Origin: a bacterium
GTDB taxonomy: Bacteria > UBA8248
Assembly (NCBI GenBank): GCA_965261085.1
Contig: OZ253442.1
Coordinates: 3,104,001-3,168,000 of the forward strand
Direction: 5' to 3'
DNA: 64,000 bases
Shown: piece after piece, positions 6,532-37,223 of the stretch
Numbering within the stretch: position 1 is the first letter of the stretch
Layout: the number at the start of each line of letters is the position of its first letter
Position numbers and translations under genes: made by a program
The notes under the pieces: model-generated
The model's database searches: none
What the model was told of the DNA's origin: nothing
The model's input: the letters and a program-made list of their open reading frames with translations, nothing else

Positions 6532-6804
6532 ATGAGCCGTGGGCTGGTGATGCACTCGAAAGACAATGTGGCCACCGTGCTGGAGGACATCGCCTCCGGA
6601 CAAAGCGTGGAAATCGAAGGTGGTGAGAAAACGTTGATGATTTGCGCGACGGAAACGATTCCTTTCGGCCACAAGATCGCAATGGGCAAGATTCGCTCGA
6701 ACGCGAAAGTGCTCAAATACGGCGAGGTCATCGGCACCGCTACACAAAACATATCCGCCGGTAGCCACGTTCACGTCCACAACATCAAGAGCACCAGAGG
6801 TTAA
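6532..6804 (+). CDS. UxaA/SuyA-like small subunit (SAF domain)
   Basis: DNVAT...IPFGHKIA...KYGEVIG.AT..I..G.HVHVHN. Confidence 0.9.
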   Translation: MSRGLVMHSKDNVATVLEDIASGQSVEIEGGEKTLMICATETIPFGHKIAMGKIRSNAKVLKYGEVIGTATQNISAGSHVHVHNIKSTRG

Positions 6805-6806
6805 GT

Positions 6807-7985
6807 ATGCCCAGAAAAAAGGGCACCCCAACTTTCTGGGGCTACAGAAGGCCTGAGGGTCCTCCGGGCGGCCGAAATCATCTCGCCATTATCAGCGGGA
6901 TGGACAATTCAAACCCTATTGTCCGTAGAATCGGCTCATTGGTGCGAGACGCCACCCCTGTGAACACATCGTTCGGACGCGCTCTGATGGGTGAGGACGA
7001 GGAACAGCATTGGCGGGTAATGGGGCACACCGCTGCGCACCCCAACGTAGGGGCAGCCATAATCGTGAGCCTCGAACCCAAGAGCGCGAACGCCATCGCG
7101 GAAGTAGCCGCGAAAACATCCCCCTGGATGCCGATAGAATCCGTGAATATCCAGGAAATCGGGGGAACTCTCAGCACCACTTCTCATGTCGTGGAACTCG
7201 CCACCAAACTTTCCGCTCATCTTGCATCCGCCAAACGCGTCCGCTGTGAATTGGGCGAACTCACCATCGGCGCGGAATGTGGGGGCTCCGATACGACCAG
7301 CGGCGTCATTTCAAACCCCGTGACGGGAATGGTCGCCGATAAAGTCGTAGAGGCGGGGGGCTCGGTCATCTTTTCCGAAACATTGGAAATTGTGGGGGCC
7401 GAGCATCTTCTCGCCCGCCGGGCCGCAGACAGAAAAACGGCGCGGAGAATCATCGCTGCCGCCAAACGCGCCGTCGATTACGCCGAAAGCATCGGCGTCG
7501 ATTTCATCGGCTCGAATCCGGCGCCCGATAATATCCGGGGTGGACTCTCATCCATTGAGGAAAAAAGCCTGGGAGCCATCAAAAAAGCGGGCAGCCACCC
7601 CATCGTCGAGGTCGTCGGCGTGGGCGAGCGCCCCTCGAAGAAAGGCACCATATTCGCCGATGCCCCTTGCGCCGGCGTAGAAAACATATCTTCGCTCGCA
7701 GCCAGCGGAGCGCAAGCGATTATTTTCTCGACCGGCATCGGGAATCCGATCGGACATCCCATTTCTCCCACCATCAAGGTGACCGGAAATCCCCGAACCG
7801 CCCGGACTATGGCCGAGAACATCGATGTGGACATCAGCGGCGTCATGGAAGGGAGGATGCGCATCGATGAAGCGAGGGATTTGCTCGAAAAAGAACTAAT
7901 CGCGGTGATGAGTGGAAAACTCACGACATCAGAACTGTTGGGAGAGACCGAACTCACGGTCAGCCGGGCCGCACTAAGCCTCTAA
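6807..7985 (+). CDS. UxaA/GarD/SuyB-family dehydratase or lyase large subunit
   Basis: FWGYRR..G..GRN, HPNVGA, ECGGSDTTSG..SNP, GGLSSIEEKSLG, FSTGIG, PTIKV. Confidence 0.88.
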   Translation: MPRKKGTPTFWGYRRPEGPPGGRNHLAIISGMDNSNPIVRRIGSLVRDATPVNTSFGRALMGEDEEQHWRVMGHTAAHPNVGAAIIVSLEPKSANAIAEVAAKTSPWMPIESVNIQEIGGTLSTTSHVVELATKLSAHLASAKRVRCELGELTIGAECGGSDTTSGVISNPVTGMVADKVVEAGGSVIFSETLEIVGAEHLLARRAADRKTARRIIAAAKRAVDYAESIGVDFIGSNPAPDNIRGGLSSIEEKSLGAIKKAGSHPIVEVVGVGERPSKKGTIFADAPCAGVENISSLAASGAQAIIFSTGIGNPIGHPISPTIKVTGNPRTARTMAENIDVDISGVMEGRMRIDEARDLLEKELIAVMSGKLTTSELLGETELTVSRAALSL

Positions 7986-8031: not shown

Positions 8032-8544
8032 CTAAAAGCCCATTCCCACGATGAGTCGATTCCAGGCATTGATGAGCGCGATGGCGCCGAGAAGTTCCAC
8101 TATCTGCGCTTCTGAATAGTGCGCCTTCAGCGCTTCAAAAGTCTCATCGGAAACACTCACCCCCTGTGTACTTTCCTCACAAAGGCGCATCGCCGCTTTT
8201 TCCGGCTCATTGAAGACGTCGCTTGCGGAACCCTCTTGCGCGGCTTTTGTCTTCTCATCGCTCACTTTGTGCATCCTTGCCATGTTGGAATGCATGTTGA
8301 TGCAAAAATGGCATCCGTTGAGCACCGATGCGCGAATGTTCAGGACCTCCTTGAAACCGACCTCGATCTCTCCCGGACCATCCGCCACCGTGGTCAAGCT
8401 CAATAAAGAGCGCAAGAAATCGGGTTTATGGGCCAAAGCCTTCACCGGCGGAATCACGACGCCGAACTGCTTTTTCAGATTCTCCATGATACGTTTCGCG
8501 GATGCTTCCGCCTGCTCGGGCTCTAACTGGGAAATCCGTGGCAT
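8032..8544 (-). CDS. Carboxymuconolactone decarboxylase / AhpD-like protein
   Basis: ASVLNGCHFCINMH (CxxCxxxH) and QIVELLGAIALINAWNR. Confidence 0.88.
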   Translation of the reverse strand: MPRISQLEPEQAEASAKRIMENLKKQFGVVIPPVKALAHKPDFLRSLLSLTTVADGPGEIEVGFKEVLNIRASVLNGCHFCINMHSNMARMHKVSDEKTKAAQEGSASDVFNEPEKAAMRLCEESTQGVSVSDETFEALKAHYSEAQIVELLGAIALINAWNRLIVGMGF

Positions 8545-8777: not shown

Positions 8778-9605
8778 ATGAACAAGCAGATTTCTTTACG
8801 AGAAGCCGCTTCACTCATCAAGGAAGGAGATGCGATTAGTCCTGGCGGCACTCTTCTGCATAGGACCCCTGCCGCCCTCGTGCGCGAAATTGCGCGCTCA
8901 GGCATCCGGCGTCTCACACTCATCAAGCCTTCTCCCGGCTATGACGCCGACCTCCTTTGCGCCGCAGGCGCCGTCGAGAGGGTCATCAGCGGCATCGTTA
9001 CGTTTGAAGCGGAATTCGGATTAGCGCCCCATTACAGAAAGGCGATTGAGAAGGGGTTGACCGGCCTCACCGAACACGCCTGAGCCAGCGTTCTCGCTGG
9101 GCTGCGGGCCGCAGCCTACGGCGTTCCTTTTCAACCCGTTCGCGGATTTGATGGGAGCGATATTCCGGAACACAGCGGTATTTTCACGATTGAAGACCCC
9201 TACACGAAAGAGGAACTGTATGCGATTCCCGCCCTGAAGCCGGACTGGGCATTGATTCACGTTCAAAAATCAGATGTACAGGGTAACGCCCAAATCCTGG
9301 GTAACCGGCAGTTCGACGTTGAAATGACGCGCGCGGCGCAAAAAGGAGTCATTCTCACAACCGAGAAAATCGTACCACCCGAAGAAATCGCATCAGAACC
9401 CGAGAGAACCACCATACCGGGTTTTCTCGTCAAAGCTGTCGTGGAAACACCGGGCGGGGCCTCGCCTTGTAGCTGCCACCCATACTATGAGGTGGACAAG
9501 GATGAAATGGGTCGTTACCTAACCCTGACCCAGAGCAAGGATGGCCTTCAAGAATATCTTGCCAGTACCGACCGGACACACACGCAAGACGCAGTGGGAA
9601 GATAG
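8778..9605 (+). CDS. Family I CoA-transferase subunit A (GctA/PcaI-like), about 275 aa if in-frame TGA 9081-9083 is read through, probably as Sec
   Basis: ORFs 8682..9083 and 9252..9605 share one frame with no other stop: ...GLTEHA*ASVLAGLRAAAYGVPFQPVRGFDGSD...DPYT..LYAIPALKPDWALIHVQKSD..GNAQI...TPGGASPCSC. A SECIS-like hairpin follows the TGA. Confidence 0.85.
9084..9122 (+). other. Candidate bacterial SECIS element
   Basis: After the TGA there is an upper stem GGCTGC/GCAGCC (nt +17 to +33) with a G-leading loop GGGCC at +23, extendable by G-U and U-A pairs, plus a lower GCC/GGC pairing. Confidence 0.6.
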
Positions 9606-9607
9606 CG

Positions 9608-10360
9608 ATGGGCAATCGCCTGGCCTTGTTGCCTGAACACGTGATTCGCGCTGGAAACCAGATGGTCGTCACCCTGTCGCGCCTCATCGAAGATGGTGAC
9701 AAGGTGTTCCACGGGGTCAACTCCCCGCTTCCCATGGTTGCGATTTTTCTGGCAAAAAAACGACACGCCCCCAACTGCACGCTCATAGAAGTCGCGGGCT
9801 CGGTGGACCCGAAACCACGCTTCATGCCGAACAGCACGGCCGACCCCGAACTCTGCCATGGCGCGGCTTCCTTGTTCTACAACCCGGACACGTATGATCT
9901 TTTTGCGCGTGGTGAGATGGACCTCGCTTTCCTGGGCGCCGCCCAACTCGACAAGCAAGGACGAGCCAATATGAGTTATATCGGCGACCCGTTCCACCCG
10001 AAAGTAAGGCTTCCCGGTGGAGGGGGAGGCGCCGTCATCATGCCCCAGGTGAAACGAACCGTCATTTGGAGAACGGTGCACGACAAACGATTTCTCGTGC
10101 CTAAGGTCGATTTTTCGACGCAATCCGGAAACCTGAGTCACGTGGTGACACCCATCGCCTTGTTTGAAAAAAAATCAACAGGGCTGGAACTCGCCAGCGT
10201 CCACGCCGGCCACTCGATGGATGAAGTCGTCGAGGAAACCGGGTTTGATCTGCATTGCCCAAGCGTTGTAGCGCAAACTCCCGCGCCGAGCGTCGATGAA
10301 CTAAACGCCTTGGAGGAACTCGATCCGGATGGTGTGCGGTTTTCAGAATTTCGTGTATAA
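9608..10360 (+). CDS. Family I CoA-transferase subunit B (GctB/PcaJ-like)
   Basis: VFHGV..PLP..A, HAPN, AFLGAAQLDKQGRAN, KVRLPGGGG, VDFST, VVTPIALF, LASVH.G. Starts 2 nt after the subunit A stop. Confidence 0.9.
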   Translation: MGNRLALLPEHVIRAGNQMVVTLSRLIEDGDKVFHGVNSPLPMVAIFLAKKRHAPNCTLIEVAGSVDPKPRFMPNSTADPELCHGAASLFYNPDTYDLFARGEMDLAFLGAAQLDKQGRANMSYIGDPFHPKVRLPGGGGGAVIMPQVKRTVIWRTVHDKRFLVPKVDFSTQSGNLSHVVTPIALFEKKSTGLELASVHAGHSMDEVVEETGFDLHCPSVVAQTPAPSVDELNALEELDPDGVRFSEFRV

Positions 10361-10442: not shown

Positions 10443-11087
10443 TTGATGAATCGCGAATTGATGAATCACCTGAAAAACTATTCAGCCTGTCAGGCGGCGG
10501 ACGCCTTTGACAAATTAAAAATCAGAGGCCACATGCCCGACATCATCCTGTTGTCCCCCGATCCTGATTACCGGATGGTGGGAGAAGCCCATACCGTTCG
10601 GATGGTTCCCGCCGGCGGCGGCCCTCTGCCCAAACGCGAGGCGCACCATATCGACGCGGCGCCTGAGGGGAGCATCGTCGTCATAAGCATCCCCTCTGGG
10701 GTGACGACGGCCAACTGGGGCGGAATGATGAGCACGCGAGCGAAAGTAATGAAACTTGGCGGAGTCGTACTGGACGGCAGAGCCAGAGATCTAGAAGAAC
10801 ACCGCCAGATGGGATTCCCCGTGTTCGCCAGAGGGGTCTCGGTTCACGGCAGCGGCGGGTATACGGTTCCCATCAGTGTAGGAGAGCCGATCAATTGCGG
10901 GGGCGTCACGGTAAGGCAGGGAGATATCATTCTGGGAGACGTAAACGGTGTGGTCGTCATCCCCAGGGAAAGGCTCGAAGAAGTCATCGACAAGATGGAT
11001 GAATTGGCGAAAATCGAAGAAAAAATCATTGCGGAGCTCGAAAAAGGCGCGAGCATCGGTGAGACGTTCGCCAAGTATCGAGACTAG
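10443..11087 (+). CDS. RraA family / HMG-CHA aldolase-like protein
   Basis: ANWGGMM, GVVLDGRARD, FPVFARG, GDIILGDVNGVVVIP. Confidence 0.88.
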   Translation: MMNRELMNHLKNYSACQAADAFDKLKIRGHMPDIILLSPDPDYRMVGEAHTVRMVPAGGGPLPKREAHHIDAAPEGSIVVISIPSGVTTANWGGMMSTRAKVMKLGGVVLDGRARDLEEHRQMGFPVFARGVSVHGSGGYTVPISVGEPINCGGVTVRQGDIILGDVNGVVVIPRERLEEVIDKMDELAKIEEKIIAELEKGASIGETFAKYRD

Positions 11088-11887: not shown

Positions 11888-13960
11888 TCAATCCCTCTGG
11901 AGCGCTCGTTCGATAGCGCTCAGATCCGTAAGCGGCTCTTTACATATGAAATTTTCGCACAGGTATACAGTAGCTCGTCCATCCACCATGAATTTTCCAT
12001 CGAGCAGGGGCACTTCGATGTCTGTTTCTGCATCTGATGATTCCGACTTCAAAGCCAAAATTTTATTGGGAATAAAGCGCGAATCAACGGCCCTGAGAGT
12101 TGCGCGCGTATCTTCTGAGTCTCTCTCGCCGACAACCACCACCTCCATCGGGGAATCGAGATAAAAGTCCAACGCCACCAGCATCATGTGGAAGGCGGCC
12201 GGTGCGCGGTCCAGGTATTCACCAAACGAGCGCAAAACACCCAAGCCGCATTCCGCGAATTCCGTCTCGCCCGACAGCTTCGCCAATTTCAGCAAACCCA
12301 GCGCCGCCATTGAGTTGCCGCTTGGTATCGCGCCGTCTTGCGTCATCTTCTTTCTAACGATGAGCCGTTCATGGTCGTGGGCAGTGAAGAAGAATGCGCC
12401 CTCCTCGTCATCCCAATAGCGCGATATCATCTCCCTCGCCAAATCCGAGGCCGCTTGAATCCATCGAGGCTCGAAACTTGCTTCGTATAAATCCACCAGA
12501 CCCACGATCAAAAAAGCATAATCATCTAGATACGCGTTGAACTTGCTCACGCCTGCCCGGTGACTCCTCAGCAGGCCCCGCTCATCGCGCATGTTGTTCA
12601 AAATAAAATCCGCCGCCTTGCTCGCCTCTTCCACGTAGGGTGGGTGCTCCAGAATTCTGCCCGCCAAAGCCATCGATCCAATCATGAGTCCGTTCCAGCT
12701 CGTGAGAATCTTATCGTCCAGGCCAGGCTTCACGCGCCGCTCGCGCTCGGCAAAGAGTTTTGCGCGTCCCCTTTGCAAAATATCAAAGAGGTCCTCTTCT
12801 GTGATTCCCAGTTCTTCGGCGAAAATGCGGGGTGGTTTCTGGATGAACAAGGCGGAAGTTTTCCCCTCGAAGTTCCCCTCATCCGTCACGCTGTAGAAAC
12901 GGCAGAAAATGTCCGCTTCATCCTTGCCGAGAATCTCTTCTATCTGCTCAGGACGCCATACGAAGAACTTGCCCTCCTCGCCCTCGCTGTCGGCATCCTG
13001 CGCAGAGTAGAATCCGCCGTCCGGGCTGGTCATTTCACGCAAAACATAATCAAGCGTATCCGCCACCACGGAGCGATAAAACGCGCTTCCCGTCGCCTGG
13101 TAGGCCTCGAGATACACCCTGGATAAAAGACCGTTGTCATAAAGCATTTTTTCGAAGTGCGGGATGAGCCAGTAAGCATCCACGCTGTATCGGTGAAACC
13201 CGCCGCCGAGTTGATCATACATCCCGCCCAACGCCATCCTCTGGAGCGTTATCTCGACCATCTTCAGTAGTTCCTGATCCCCGGATCGTCTCCACTTTCT
13301 CAAAAGCAACATCAACGCCATGGAAGGTGGAAATTTTGGAGCTTGCCCAAAACCACCCCAGGTAGAGTCGAATCGATCCTTCAGTTCTTGCGCGGCTTTG
13401 TCGATCCATTCCGCTTTCAAATCACCTTTTGTGGATGCAACGACTCCCATTTGCTGCAAATTCGCCGTTAAGCTTTCTGCATTATCCTGCAAATCCTCTT
13501 GTCTCGTCCGATAAACTTCGGCCAGCCTCAAGAGCACGTTTTTGAAGCCGGGCCTGCCCCATTTGTCATGTGGGGGAAAATATGTGCCCCCGAAAAAGGG
13601 CCGTAAGTCCGGGAGCAGGAAAACACTCATGGGCCAACCACCTTGGCCCGTCATCATCTGCACCGCCTCCATGTAGATCCCATCGATATCGGGACGCTCT
13701 TCGCGGTCCACTTTAATGGAGACGAAATGCTCGTTCATGATTTCAGCGATTTCCTCATCCTCGAAACTTTCATGCTCCATCACATGGCACCAATGGCAGG
13801 CAGAATAGCCGACAGACAGAAAAATGGGCTTGTTTTCTTCTCTTGATTTGCGGAGCGCATCCTCGCCCCAGGGATACCACTGCACCGGATTATATTGGTG
13901 CTGCAAGAGGTACGGGCTCGTCTCCTGCGCAAGGAGGTTCTTCCGCTGGGGCTGATTCAT
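11888..13960 (-). CDS. Thioredoxin-domain protein, YyaL/SSP411 family
   Basis: SPYLLQH, YSACHWCHVMEHESF, KVDREERPDID, GGFHRYSVD..W.IPHFEKMLYDN, DDKILTSWNGL. Confidence 0.93.
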   Translation of the reverse strand: MNQPQRKNLLAQETSPYLLQHQYNPVQWYPWGEDALRKSREENKPIFLSVGYSACHWCHVMEHESFEDEEIAEIMNEHFVSIKVDREERPDIDGIYMEAVQMMTGQGGWPMSVFLLPDLRPFFGGTYFPPHDKWGRPGFKNVLLRLAEVYRTRQEDLQDNAESLTANLQQMGVVASTKGDLKAEWIDKAAQELKDRFDSTWGGFGQAPKFPPSMALMLLLRKWRRSGDQELLKMVEITLQRMALGGMYDQLGGGFHRYSVDAYWLIPHFEKMLYDNGLLSRVYLEAYQATGSAFYRSVVADTLDYVLREMTSPDGGFYSAQDADSEGEEGKFFVWRPEQIEEILGKDEADIFCRFYSVTDEGNFEGKTSALFIQKPPRIFAEELGITEEDLFDILQRGRAKLFAERERRVKPGLDDKILTSWNGLMIGSMALAGRILEHPPYVEEASKAADFILNNMRDERGLLRSHRAGVSKFNAYLDDYAFLIVGLVDLYEASFEPRWIQAASDLAREMISRYWDDEEGAFFFTAHDHERLIVRKKMTQDGAIPSGNSMAALGLLKLAKLSGETEFAECGLGVLRSFGEYLDRAPAAFHMMLVALDFYLDSPMEVVVVGERDSEDTRATLRAVDSRFIPNKILALKSESSDAETDIEVPLLDGKFMVDGRATVYLCENFICKEPLTDLSAIERALQRD

Positions 13961-37137: not shown

Positions 37138-37223
37138 TGGTGCCCGGGGCCGGACTCGAACCGGCACGGCCTCTCGGCCAAGGGATTTTAAGTCCCTAGT
37201 GTCTACCATTCCACCACCCGGGC
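37138..37223 (-). tRNA. tRNA-Leu (TAA)
   Basis: GCCCGGGTGGTGGAATGGTAGACACTAGGGAC-TTAAAA-TCCCTTGGCCGAGAGGCCGTGCCGGTTCGAGTCCGGCCCCGGGCACCA: long variable arm, GGTTCGA T-loop, encoded CCA. Confidence 0.97.

Follow-up and report, generated by a model that had tools for sequence, protein, structure and literature searches.

A candidate selenocysteine-containing alpha subunit in an enzyme of the CoA-transferase fold

Bacterial selenoprotein genes of the fdhF and selD type carry an in-frame UGA followed by a G+C-rich stem-loop, which presents a small, GG-leading loop at a spacing of 16–37 nt. Their products have cysteine homologues, and their genomes encode selA, selB, selC and selD. According to PMC13188914, the bacterial SECIS model calls for an apical loop of 3–9 nt with a G in loop position 1 or 2, an upper stem of 4–16 bp, a spacing of 16–37 nt from the UGA and a minimum free energy of −7.5 kcal/mol or lower. 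The alpha-subunit gene described here resembles these genes on every one of the shared points, and the selD of its own genome has the same kind of hairpin. It differs in its protein family – the PF01144 fold is absent from the 119-family catalogue, and no NCBIfam model covers the family. The alpha protein has neither a UxxC nor a CxxU redox motif; the context of its selenocysteine (Sec) is EHA-U-AS.

The closest described enzymes share the alpha/beta architecture of the glutaconate CoA-transferases. The best solved relative of both subunits is AibA/AibB, the 3-methylglutaconyl-CoA decarboxylase of Myxococcus xanthus (PDB 5mzw and others; E-values of 1.9e-32 and 8.6e-33), in which the CoA-transferase fold serves a reaction on an acyl-CoA that involves no CoA transfer. 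IpdAB, the COCHEA-CoA hydrolase of steroid catabolism (PDB 6co6, 6co9, 6coj and 6con), is likewise a non-transferase with the alpha/beta glutaconate-CoA-transferase fold, though it is distant from the present protein (E-values of 1e-27 to 1e-28). GctAB (PDB 1poi) and the other family I CoA-transferases share with the locus the fold, the two-subunit gene order and a beta-subunit glutamate at the catalytic position. According to papers on these enzymes, AibB Cys56 replaces the catalytic glutamate of glutaconate CoA-transferases and is the proposed general acid (PMC7756340); IpdB lacks the catalytic glutamate and has Gly57 in the beta subunit (PMC5380842); and SCOT-type enzymes have a conserved glutamine (Gln99/Gln110) that hydrogen-bonds the bound carboxylate beside the catalytic glutamate (PMC12817287).

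We analyzed a stretch of 64,000 nucleotides (the window), in which positions 8778–9605 of the forward strand form a single frame of 275 codons. Its sole internal stop is a TGA at 9081–9083, codon 102, in the context TEHA-U-ASVLAGLRAAAYGVPF, and its true stop is a TAG at 9603–9605. The ATG of the 250-amino-acid beta subunit (9608–10360, forward strand) follows 2 nt later, and both subunits score well above the Pfam CoA_trans (PF01144) cut-off of 23 bits (alpha 77.2, beta 69.1). Translation thus bears out the sequence-only reading of this stretch, which had described one frame of GctA/PcaI length (about 275 amino acids) interrupted by a TGA alone at codon 102, with subunit B starting 2 nt past the true stop. 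That reading also expected annotation pipelines to call the locus a pseudogene or two genes, and databases do carry the pieces: a 101-amino-acid N-terminal fragment of an alpha-type gene (P0133) and C-terminal fragments of 154–170 amino acids, for example P0013 and P0043 (166–167 amino acids), with P0043 annotated as a ‘hypothetical protein’. From its translation, its Pfam match and its orthologues, 8778–9605 is very probably an intact selenoprotein gene, neither a pseudogene nor two genes.

A lone in-frame stop resembles a fresh nonsense mutation, and the fragmentary public gene calls would suit a pseudogene or a sequencing or assembly error equally well. The distribution of the TGA speaks against this. 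In a search of 61 genomes, all 30 matches at 63–100% identity, found in 29 genomes, carry one TGA each, which falls at codon 102 in 30 of 30 orthologues (265–279 amino acids; source records labelled Nitrospinota); paralogues of lower identity in the same search carry none. TGA occupies the codon-102 column in 32 of 32 loci from genome contigs. It is also present in 42 of the 78 metagenome homologues that cover the column, which span several divergent clades, though this fraction overstates the frequency of the Sec form because the metagenome query was built from truncated forms. Contigs of two other DNA runs and of one RNA-library run (related strain) read TGA at 9081–9083, not TGC or TGG; the RNA-library contig that spans these positions is not proof of transcription, and the parts of the stretch left uncovered in runs X15 and X16 are uninformative. 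On both sides of the TGA the frame is open and under purifying selection across the 30 orthologues, with synonymous changes frequent relative to non-synonymous ones (47 against 33 upstream and 63 against 58 downstream in the comparison with L051). A systematic error common to different studies and clades is implausible, and we give a recent nonsense mutation or miscalled base practically no chance of accounting for the codon.

Homologues without the TGA have cysteine in its place. Cysteine occupies the Sec column in 91 of 91 sequences at 45% identity or more and in 118 of 252 full-length sequences overall, with P0001 – this protein with C substituted for U – counted within both the 91 and the 118. 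Among the cysteine forms, all 20 of the 20 paralogues and 36 metagenome loci use TGC or TGT as the codon. The sequence-only reading had interpreted the locus as a selenoprotein gene and named cysteine at this column in homologues, TGA plus hairpin in other genomes, agreement among sequencing reads and the presence of Sec machinery as what would support it; each of these is found, and they favor a selenoprotein as the predicted product.

The cysteine column also bears on a second alternative, in which the UGA is a true stop and the locus would make three polypeptides (a 101-amino-acid N-terminal protein, a re-initiated C-terminal protein and the beta subunit), with the hairpin serving translational coupling or mRNA stability. 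Split CoA-transferase subunits do exist – the alpha/beta division itself separates what single-chain enzymes carry on one polypeptide – and some genomes have a GTG three codons past the TGA, with P0013 beginning MLAGLR. A hairpin past a stop could, moreover, tune re-initiation. In this window, however, the first in-frame ATG, GTG or TTG after the TGA lies only at 9252, so that the conserved codons 103–158 could not be made by re-initiation. These codons are among the best conserved at the protein level, yet they vary synonymously. Every close full-length homologue has cysteine at the column, the genome has complete Sec machinery, and the hairpin matches the SECIS spacing and loop, reappearing at an equal distance where the stem sequence differs. 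We therefore consider separate polypeptides a very unlikely outcome, and return to the single selenoprotein frame.

The hairpin downstream of the UGA (9099–9117, forward strand) has the sequence GGGCUGCG-GGC-CGCAGCCU. Its 8-bp stem is formed by arms at 9099–9106 (GGGCTGCG) and 9110–9117 (CGCAGCCT), and its apical loop, GGC at 9107–9109, begins 23 nt past the UGA. With a 3-nt loop that opens with GG, an 8-bp stem, a 23-nt spacing and an energy of −13.7 kcal/mol, it lies within the bacterial SECIS model. The SECIS-like stem GGCTGC/GCAGCC seen in the sequence-only reading is present, with its loop 23 nt downstream, but measures 8 bp with a GGC triloop, not 6 bp.

By itself, this hairpin is no evidence of recoding; the comparative signal is what exceeds chance. 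Its single-sequence fold z-score is an unexceptional −1.26, and a crude genome scan for an open frame, a TGA and a hairpin, run with no homology filter, returned 362 places, too many to define the selenoproteome. Among orthologues, synonymous entropy is lower over codons 108–114 than in any other of the 194 codon windows (0.11 bits against a median of 1.04). Across 41 distinct sequences the stem is paired in 94.2% of cells, with compensatory change in three pairs (15 cells), a level that 0 of 500 shuffles matched and that derives from comparison between clades. Within the Nitrospinota-type clade the hairpin is nearly invariant, its only changes being two one-sided (wobble) substitutions, neither of them compensatory. 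At the corresponding site in two distant clades the stem is built from another sequence (GCUCUCC/GGGGAGC), and the loop is CGGGC or GUG. The hairpin is shifted by 3 nt in the clade of L147, L149 and L155, and that of L127 contains a U-U mismatch. The Cys paralogue encodes near-identical residues at the hairpin (GLRA-S-AYG, with one Ser for Ala), and its third positions vary freely.

Two other foldings of the same region were considered as SECIS candidates and set aside in favor of the 8-bp stem. A competing hairpin noted earlier at +2 to +17 (CCAGCG-TTCT-CGCTGG, 9085–9100) is present in the window but shows no conservation beyond shuffles: it is paired in 79.5% of cells, and 424 of 500 shuffles equal it. 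The alternative that RNAfold prefers for the 45-nt piece (pairs 21–24/39–42 and 26–29/34–37) does no better than shuffles across the 41 sequences. As for the lower GCC/GGC pairing of the sequence-only reading, which would extend the SECIS-like hairpin, 69.9% of cells are paired with some G-C to C-G swaps, and a slid control equals it.

The genome has the machinery that Sec insertion requires in bacteria, with profile matches to selA (514 bits), selB (384 bits), selD (336 bits) and tRNA-Sec (selC, 75.9 bits), all above curated cut-offs. Its selD itself contains one in-frame TGA, followed by a similar hairpin with a GGA triloop. These observations bear on whether the UGA might be read through as Cys, Trp or Gly, by near-cognate suppression or under a reassigned code. 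Homologues do have cysteine at the column, and a shortage of selenium can lead to cysteine being inserted at Sec codons. However, TGA is the commonest stop in this genome, terminating 1448 of 3099 long frames; the tRNA-Sec is the sole tRNA with a UCA anticodon among 52; and simple suppression needs no strongly constrained hairpin. Insertion of an amino acid other than selenocysteine is thus a highly improbable reading of the locus.

Recoding of the UGA as selenocysteine is, by these comparisons, well supported, and the in-frame TGA is almost certainly a selenocysteine codon for a residue of the active site. In the mechanism we propose, the codon-102 UGA would be decoded by Sec-tRNA(Sec) brought by SelB, which the hairpin at 9099–9117 would recruit; the SelB step is taken from the established bacterial mechanism. 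The product, an alpha subunit of 275 amino acids, would join the beta subunit, whose gene starts 2 nt further on, in an enzyme of the CoA-transferase fold, in which Sec102 would replace a clade-invariant cysteine and act on an acyl-CoA substrate.

The column of U102 is occupied by glutamate in the IpdA chains of 6co6, 6co9 and 6con, by alanine in 6coj, by glutamine in GctA (1poi_A) and by glycine in AibA (5mzw_A). Over the aligned stretch 6coj is otherwise identical to the other IpdA chains, and the residue changed in it, which we take to be the catalytic base Glu105, lies exactly at the Sec column. Since the Sec/Cys column matches the IpdA residue that the depositors mutated, it is probably catalytic, and Sec102 most likely acts in catalysis as a nucleophile or as an acid-base residue. 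The comparison with IpdA differs in that this column holds Sec or Cys in the locus and its clade, not Glu. It differs from AibAB in the subunit concerned: the AibAB cysteine is in beta, at the place of the transferase glutamate, whereas the locus has a glutamate there and its Sec/Cys in alpha.

That glutamate, Glu61, stands at the transferase catalytic position of the beta subunit, which is Glu54 in the beta chain of GCT. It aligns with AibB Cys56 and is shared by 31 of 31 Sec-type loci in the Nitrospinota-type lineage. Elsewhere in the clade it is rare. Among 68 metagenome loci of the Cys/Sec clade, the beta residue at this position is Asn in 56 and Glu in 3, so that most betas of the clade resemble IpdAB, and differ from family I CoA-transferases, in having no catalytic Glu. 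Sec in alpha is not coupled to Glu in beta across these 68 loci (TGA loci: 26 Asn, 4 Thr, 3 Glu and 2 Ser; Cys loci: 30 Asn, 2 Thr and 1 Val). Because its betas mostly lack the transferase glutamate, the Cys/Sec clade as a whole is probably made up of acyl-CoA-modifying enzymes like AibAB and IpdAB, not transferases. The Nitrospinota-type subclade has regained or kept the beta glutamate.

The pair has the sequence features of a putative family I CoA-transferase, namely two adjoining subunits above the Pfam cut-off and the catalytic Glu in beta. Scores against the 3-oxoacid CoA-transferase models TIGR02429 and TIGR02428 fall far below the curated cut-offs (38.2 against 128.5, and 27.1 against 243.55), and NCBIfam holds no model naming the family of the alpha protein. 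The signature of an IpdAB-type hydrolase is absent, with Sec in place of Glu at the alpha column and Glu61 present in beta; that of an AibA/AibB-type decarboxylase, cysteine at beta position 56, is replaced by Glu61.

Given the retained beta glutamate, the enzyme of this locus may work as an ordinary transferase and leave Sec a secondary role, for example redox or regulatory. In its fuller form, this alternative accepts the selenocysteine but makes it non-catalytic in acyl transfer: a normal family I reaction would proceed through beta-Glu61, and Sec102 would be a redox switch or be serviced by a CxxC neighbor. A candidate neighbor exists in a divergent CMD/AhpD-like protein of 170 amino acids with a C-H-F-C motif (8032–8544, reverse strand; Pfam PF02627), whose gene is found upstream at 27 of the 32 Sec-type loci, including loci with as little as 64% identity. 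Some homologues also have redox-type genes next to them (L187 a pyridine nucleotide-disulphide oxidoreductase, L190 a CCG-domain protein), and according to PMC13188914 known selenoproteins are mostly redox proteins. The complete conservation of Glu61 in the lineage fits the same picture. Against it, the Cys/Sec column is invariant in a clade whose betas mostly lack Glu, so whatever conserved function the residue has cannot require transfer through Glu, and the column is the one mutated in IpdA. We regard a non-catalytic Sec as rather unlikely, though a serious contender.

A catalytic role for the alpha residue leads to a broader proposal, which we put forward tentatively and which may well prove wrong. 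The Sec or Cys at column 102, and not the beta Glu, would be the nucleophile or acid-base catalyst of a new, non-transferase reaction of acyl-CoA esters, possibly via an acyl-selenoester or acyl-thioester enzyme intermediate, and the clade would constitute a widespread, uncatalogued family of selenoenzymes within the CoA-transferase superfamily. If this is correct, selenocysteine here serves thioester chemistry and not classical redox chemistry, and the repeated Cys/Sec switches mark the catalytic residue of a large uncharacterized enzyme clade; our search found no characterized member of it.

These switches are apparent in the phylogeny. The Sec rows of the Nitrospinota-type lineage group into a single clade with an SH-aLRT of 100, surrounded by Cys rows, and at least six Cys/Sec changes are needed on the 84 rows of the tree, with five forced by starred branches. 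At least five to six switches at one column single out one functionally critical residue.

The sequence-only reading did not place this family among described bacterial selenoproteins, and the catalogue agrees: the 119 prokaryotic selenoprotein families tabulated in 2026 (PMC13188914) include no CoA-transferase. The main texts of PMC12013277, PMC13326102 and PMC9312934 contain no CoA-transferase selenoprotein, although their supplementary lists or BSepDB could hold the family, and PMC7176365 concerns formate dehydrogenase. A Sec family of alpha subunits would be new to the checked catalogue and would join a list dominated by thiol-redox folds. Selenoprotein genes are routinely mis-annotated, and this alpha gene is stored publicly as two fragments; recognizing the family would correct the annotation in 29 of the 61 searched genomes and in the 42 metagenome loci of 78 (the fraction inflated by the query). 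BSepDB counts three organisms labelled Nitrospinota, Nitrospinaceae or Nitrospinae among its top ten bacteria for number of selenoprotein genes. If the present genome belongs with these, their selenoproteomes are still incomplete.

Beyond the CMD/AhpD-like gene, the surroundings of the locus are conserved to differing depths. A gene for an RraA-like protein of the aldolase/decarboxylase family (10443–11087, forward strand; Pfam PF03737, 114.9 bits) lies downstream in 26 of 32 Sec-type loci. Upstream, a small SAF-domain protein (6532–6804; PF08666) and a UxaA/GarD-like dehydratase large subunit (6807–7985; PF20629 and PF04295) form a pair spanning 6532–7985 on the forward strand. This pair is a neighbor within the genus only, at loci of at least 81% identity, and is absent in two such loci, one of which lacks upstream DNA. 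The gene neighborhoods of the homologues did not point to a single pathway. L108, L158 and L163 have a gene for an AMP-binding CoA ligase immediately upstream, and the neighbors of other homologues include an oxidoreductase, a CCG-domain protein and transporters of the MFS or TctC type.

The alpha subunit gene (window 8778-9605, + strand) is a single frame of 275 codons ending in a TAG at 9603-9605, and its translation contains one internal stop, the TGA at codon 102 (9081-9083, +; context TEHA-U-ASVLAGLRAAAYGVPF). A second gene, encoding the 250-codon beta subunit, starts on the same strand at 9608. The sequence-only reading had joined two open reading frames into this one gene and placed subunit B directly after the true stop, and both points stand. 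Both products match Pfam CoA_trans (alpha 77.2 bits, beta 69.1 bits; cut-off 23), and against the 3-oxoacid CoA-transferase subfamily models both score far under the curated cut-offs. Since the first in-frame start after the TGA lies at 9252 – the window has no in-frame ATG, GTG or TTG before it – re-initiation could not make codons 103-158, which contain the protein's best conserved motif. Compared with the most distant orthologue, locus L051, the part before the TGA differs at 47 codons synonymously and at 33 non-synonymously, and the part after it at 63 and 58, respectively, indicating coding-sequence evolution on both sides. The expectation that annotation pipelines would split such a gene is borne out in public collections, which hold a 101-residue protein ending exactly before the TGA (P0133) and nine proteins of 154-170 residues starting just past it (one of them, P0043, named 'hypothetical protein'); gene callers thus split the Sec gene.

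Searching the window's own genome and those of 60 relatives, 61 in total, with the read-through protein returned 30 places in 29 genomes, at 63-100% identity and each with one TGA, together with lower-scoring paralogues (35-54% identity) that have no stop. Within the genus, 21 of 23 genomes (the window's own counted) have the Sec-type gene, as do 8 of 14 from other genera of the same family; none was found in the 24 from other families. All 30 extracted genes have the TGA as codon 102 and a frame open from start to normal stop (265-279 codons). A one-genome-per-species scan, which overlaps the genomes of this search and is not independent of it, identified 32 Sec-type loci, all with the TGA, in records titled Nitrospinota, Nitrospinaceae, Candidatus Tectomicrobia or 'bacterium'. 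The same scan found eight proteobacterial homologues (45-53% identity) with TGC or TGT at this codon.

Cysteine at this column in homologues had been named as support for selenocysteine, and we observed it widely. Across 252 full-length sequences aligned from two large protein searches, column 102 is most often C (118), then E (71), N (20), G (14) and H (10); at 45% identity or more it is C in 91 of 91, the read-through query (C for U) among them. The same genomes also encode a Cys paralogue at 46-53% identity, with TGC (16) or TGT (4) in the 20 examined. The copy in the window's own genome (C1:328089-329665, - strand; 48% identity) has TGT at the column, and the beta subunit paired with it carries Asn at the position that is Glu61 in this locus.

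The hairpin proposed to follow the UGA was confirmed as an 8-bp stem (9099-9106 paired with 9110-9117, +) capped by a GGC loop, which begins 23 nt past the UGA (-13.7 kcal/mol). It fits the consensus bacterial SECIS model on every count given in section 5 of PMC13188914: a loop of 3-9 nt, a stem of 4-16 bp, G in the first two loop positions, a spacing of 16-37 nt and an MFE at or below -7.5. Third positions of codons 108-114 (GGG CTG CGG GCC GCA GCC TAC) are kept in 28-30 of 30 orthologues, compared with mostly 13-27 for other codons, and this stretch has the lowest synonymous codon entropy of 194 seven-codon windows (0.11 bits versus a median of 1.04). As a control we used the Cys paralogue, whose residues here (G-L-R-A-S-A-Y-G) are nearly identical yet whose third positions are free (major letter in 10-17 of 20), implying that the constraint acts on the RNA rather than the protein. 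Within the lineage six of the eight stem pairs are invariant and two show one-sided changes (U-A to U-G and G-C to G-U) – a near-invariance that is by itself uninformative on pairing. The competing hairpin raised as a rival structure, CCAGCG-TTCT-CGCTGG at +2 to +17, is conserved no better than shuffles and drops out. The fold favoured by RNAfold for the single 45-nt sequence also did no better than shuffles. For the lower GCC/GGC pairing named in the sequence-only reading, 69.9% of cells pair and there are some G-C to C-G swaps, a level that a slid control equals.

Because truncated database hits at about 50% identity suggested further Sec forms, we used an alignment of five of them to scan JGI metagenome contigs. 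This yielded 80 loci, 78 of them covering the column (TGA 42, TGC 24, TGT 12), with a TGA share biased upwards because the query came from truncated forms. The TGA forms belong to several clades at 40-66% identity to the window's protein, with contexts that include TENS-U-PVIYAGM, VEHA-U-ISL, REFS-U-VGV, HEYT-U-IGL, REHA-U-LSI, EEHA-U-MTL, TEHT-U-ASI and VEGS-U-TAI. Most of their 29 distinct downstream sequences fold to a hairpin at the same place with differing paired bases (stems GGGAUGCG/CGCAUCCC, GGGACUGCG/CGCGGUCC and GGGAUUGCG/CGCAAUCC), and the most distant clades have a stem of different sequence, GCUCUCC/GGGGAGC, with a CGGGC or GUG loop. The combination of TGA and hairpin, sought in other genomes, therefore recurs both among the orthologues and in the metagenomes.

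We assessed covariation in 41 distinct sequences, the full set of 29 from the metagenomes plus 12 representatives picked from the 28 in alignment A3. In this set the 8-bp structure was paired in 94.2% of cells, three pairs showed two-sided change (15 cells), and none of 500 column shuffles matched the observed pairing, compensatory cell count or covariation score. As related sequences may outdo column shuffles without any structure, slid controls were also needed, and these gave 33-54% pairing. One locus (L127) has a U-U mismatch in the stem. In one Sec clade (L147, L149-L155; EEHA-U-MTLVSG) the stem is displaced by 3 nt (GGGGCUG-CGUG-CAGCCUC/U), which means that the family has no single SECIS register.

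All of the Sec machinery looked for is present in the genome, a single 4.27 Mb contig: selA (514 bits) adjoining selB (384 bits), selD (C1:3459-4421, - strand; 336 bits) and a tRNA-Sec with anticodon UCA (75.9 bits), the sole UCA tRNA among 52. UGA is not generally reassigned, since TGA ends 1448 of 3099 long frames. The selD gene has one in-frame TGA with a GGGUCC-GGA-GGACCU hairpin 17 nt downstream, the same kind of element as in the Sec gene, indicating that selenophosphate synthetase is itself a selenoprotein in this genome. The TGA also held up in other sequencing runs. Contigs from X1 and X5, runs whose kind is not on record, cover 9081-9083 with zero differences there, and a contig of a related strain from the metatranscriptome library X15 – whose presence in an RNA library does not itself prove transcription – is unchanged at these positions, with 14 differences over 334 nt. 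The closest differences in these runs, at 9053 and 9125, lie outside both the TGA and the hairpin.

Comparative sequence evidence thus offers good support for UGA102 as a conserved, selected codon beside a constrained hairpin in a Sec-equipped genome, and we consider its decoding as selenocysteine highly probable. Following the established bacterial pathway, SelB with Sec-tRNA would bind the apical part of the hairpin and decode the UGA.

Two further tRNAs touch on the tRNA-Sec model. ARAGORN reports an 89-nt tRNA-Trp (CCA) at C1:1155312-1155400 (- strand), beside a normal 76-nt tRNA-Trp, which matches the model weakly (37.7 bits, under the cut-off). The window's only tRNA, a tRNA-Leu (UAA) at 37138-37223 (- strand), has a sub-threshold match (44.2 bits) that is probably due to its long variable arm.

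The recoding mechanism is already known; it is the CoA-transferase-like family that appears new as a selenoprotein. The 119 families and subfamilies in Table 1 of a 2026 review (PMC13188914) include no CoA-transferase or PF01144 entry, and the table passages of a 2022 review do not name the family either. Neither 'CoA' nor 'transferase' occurs in the main texts of deep-Sep and BSepDB, though the supplements and the BSepDB database itself may differ. Full-text searches pairing CoA transferase with selenocysteine gave, judged by title, only unrelated papers (one on formate dehydrogenase), and no NCBIfam model of June 2026 names this family. The BSepDB main text counts three bacteria labelled Nitrospinota, Nitrospinaceae or Nitrospinae (GTDB UBA8248) among the ten richest in selenoprotein genes. 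Within the catalogues and main texts examined, this appears to be a genuine, previously uncatalogued selenoprotein family.

To place the Sec forms, we built quick maximum-likelihood trees. The first covered 73 alpha subunits, had the Sec column masked and used Glu-type rows as outgroup; in it the lineage's 15 Sec rows make up a single clade (SH-aLRT 100) that sits within a clade of Cys rows (96). A second tree that includes metagenome forms (88 rows, of which 36 have U, 48 C and 4 E; a row with an extra stop was left out) requires at least six Cys/Sec changes, and well-supported branches force five of these. As both trees are quick ones and not bootstrapped, their topology is approximate and the count is a lower-bound estimate. 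Functionally critical, reactive cysteines typically show such repeated switching at a single column.

The nearest solved relatives are AibA/AibB (E 1.9e-32 for alpha, 8.6e-33 for beta), with glutaconate CoA-transferase (1poi) and the IpdAB hydrolases (6con, 6co6, 6co9, 6coj) also near. Aligned with HMMER, AibA has Gly at the Sec column, GctA (1poi) has Gln, and IpdA chains 6con, 6co6 and 6co9 have Glu. Chain 6coj_A has Ala there and otherwise equals 6co6_A over the aligned stretch, implying that the depositors engineered this residue; it is presumably Glu105, the proposed catalytic base of IpdA. SCOT-type transferases have a conserved Gln (Gln99/Gln110) that hydrogen-bonds the bound carboxylate next to the catalytic Glu (PMC12817287). 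From its alignment, Sec102 would lie within the active site, and we lean slightly towards Sec/Cys102 being the catalytic residue.

Glu61 of the beta subunit lines up with AibB Cys56, which occupies the site of the glutaconate CoA-transferase catalytic glutamate (PMC7756340), Glu54 beta (PMC5380842). The solved AibB variants 5n00, 5n02 and 5n03 differ from wild type at the Cys56 position. Every Sec-type locus of the lineage that covers this region (31) carries Glu, whereas in the proteobacterial Cys forms the position is Ser or Thr. The 68 metagenome loci mostly carry Asn (56), followed by Thr (6), Glu (3, each from a locus of the same type as this one), Ser (2) and Val (1), and this residue is unrelated to whether alpha has Sec or Cys. 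As its beta residue is mostly Asn, Ser or Thr, the Cys/Sec clade as a whole is without the residue that defines family I transferases; IpdAB and AibAB likewise lack this Glu, and the clade retains the alpha Cys/Sec. In this lineage, Glu61 may be an added partner of Sec102.

Within the genus only, the locus neighbours a small SAF-domain ORF directly before a UxaA/GarD-like dehydratase large subunit (6532-7985, +), a two-piece architecture resembling that of sulfolactate sulfo-lyase SuyAB. An RraA-like gene (10443-11087) is present at 26 of 32 loci, and a CMD/AhpD-like gene (PF02627; 8032-8544, - strand), divergent from the Sec gene, at 27 of 32. CMD-like and AhpD-like proteins are catalogued selenoprotein families with CxxU (PMC13188914); this copy has Cys (motif C-H-F-C) and no in-frame TGA. 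The conserved CxxC neighbour hints at a redox or regulatory Sec in an otherwise ordinary Glu-dependent transferase, the main rival reading of this locus, which we consider unlikely. Among distant members, an AMP-binding acyl-CoA ligase lies directly upstream of the alpha/beta pair in two Cys forms (L108 1466-3001, where it overlaps the alpha start, and L158 1-1137) and one Sec form (L163 3-1133); other distant homologues neighbour transporters or redox proteins. An upstream ligase fits an enzyme given ready-made acyl-CoA rather than one transferring CoA, though the contexts are mixed and name no substrate. In the reading that we tentatively prefer, Sec/Cys102 would be a nucleophile or acid-base towards an acyl-CoA, and the reaction would not be CoA transfer.

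One subclade has, on the same strand as its Sec-type pair and ~1.6 kb further downstream, a Cys-type alpha/beta pair (L098 4610-5431, L101 4646-5455, L102 2456-3253; also genomes G023, G031 and G035) that could serve as a selenium-independent backup. Further along the window, 11888-13960 (- strand) encodes a 690-aa protein with an N-terminal thioredoxin-like DUF255 (Thioredox_DsbH) domain.
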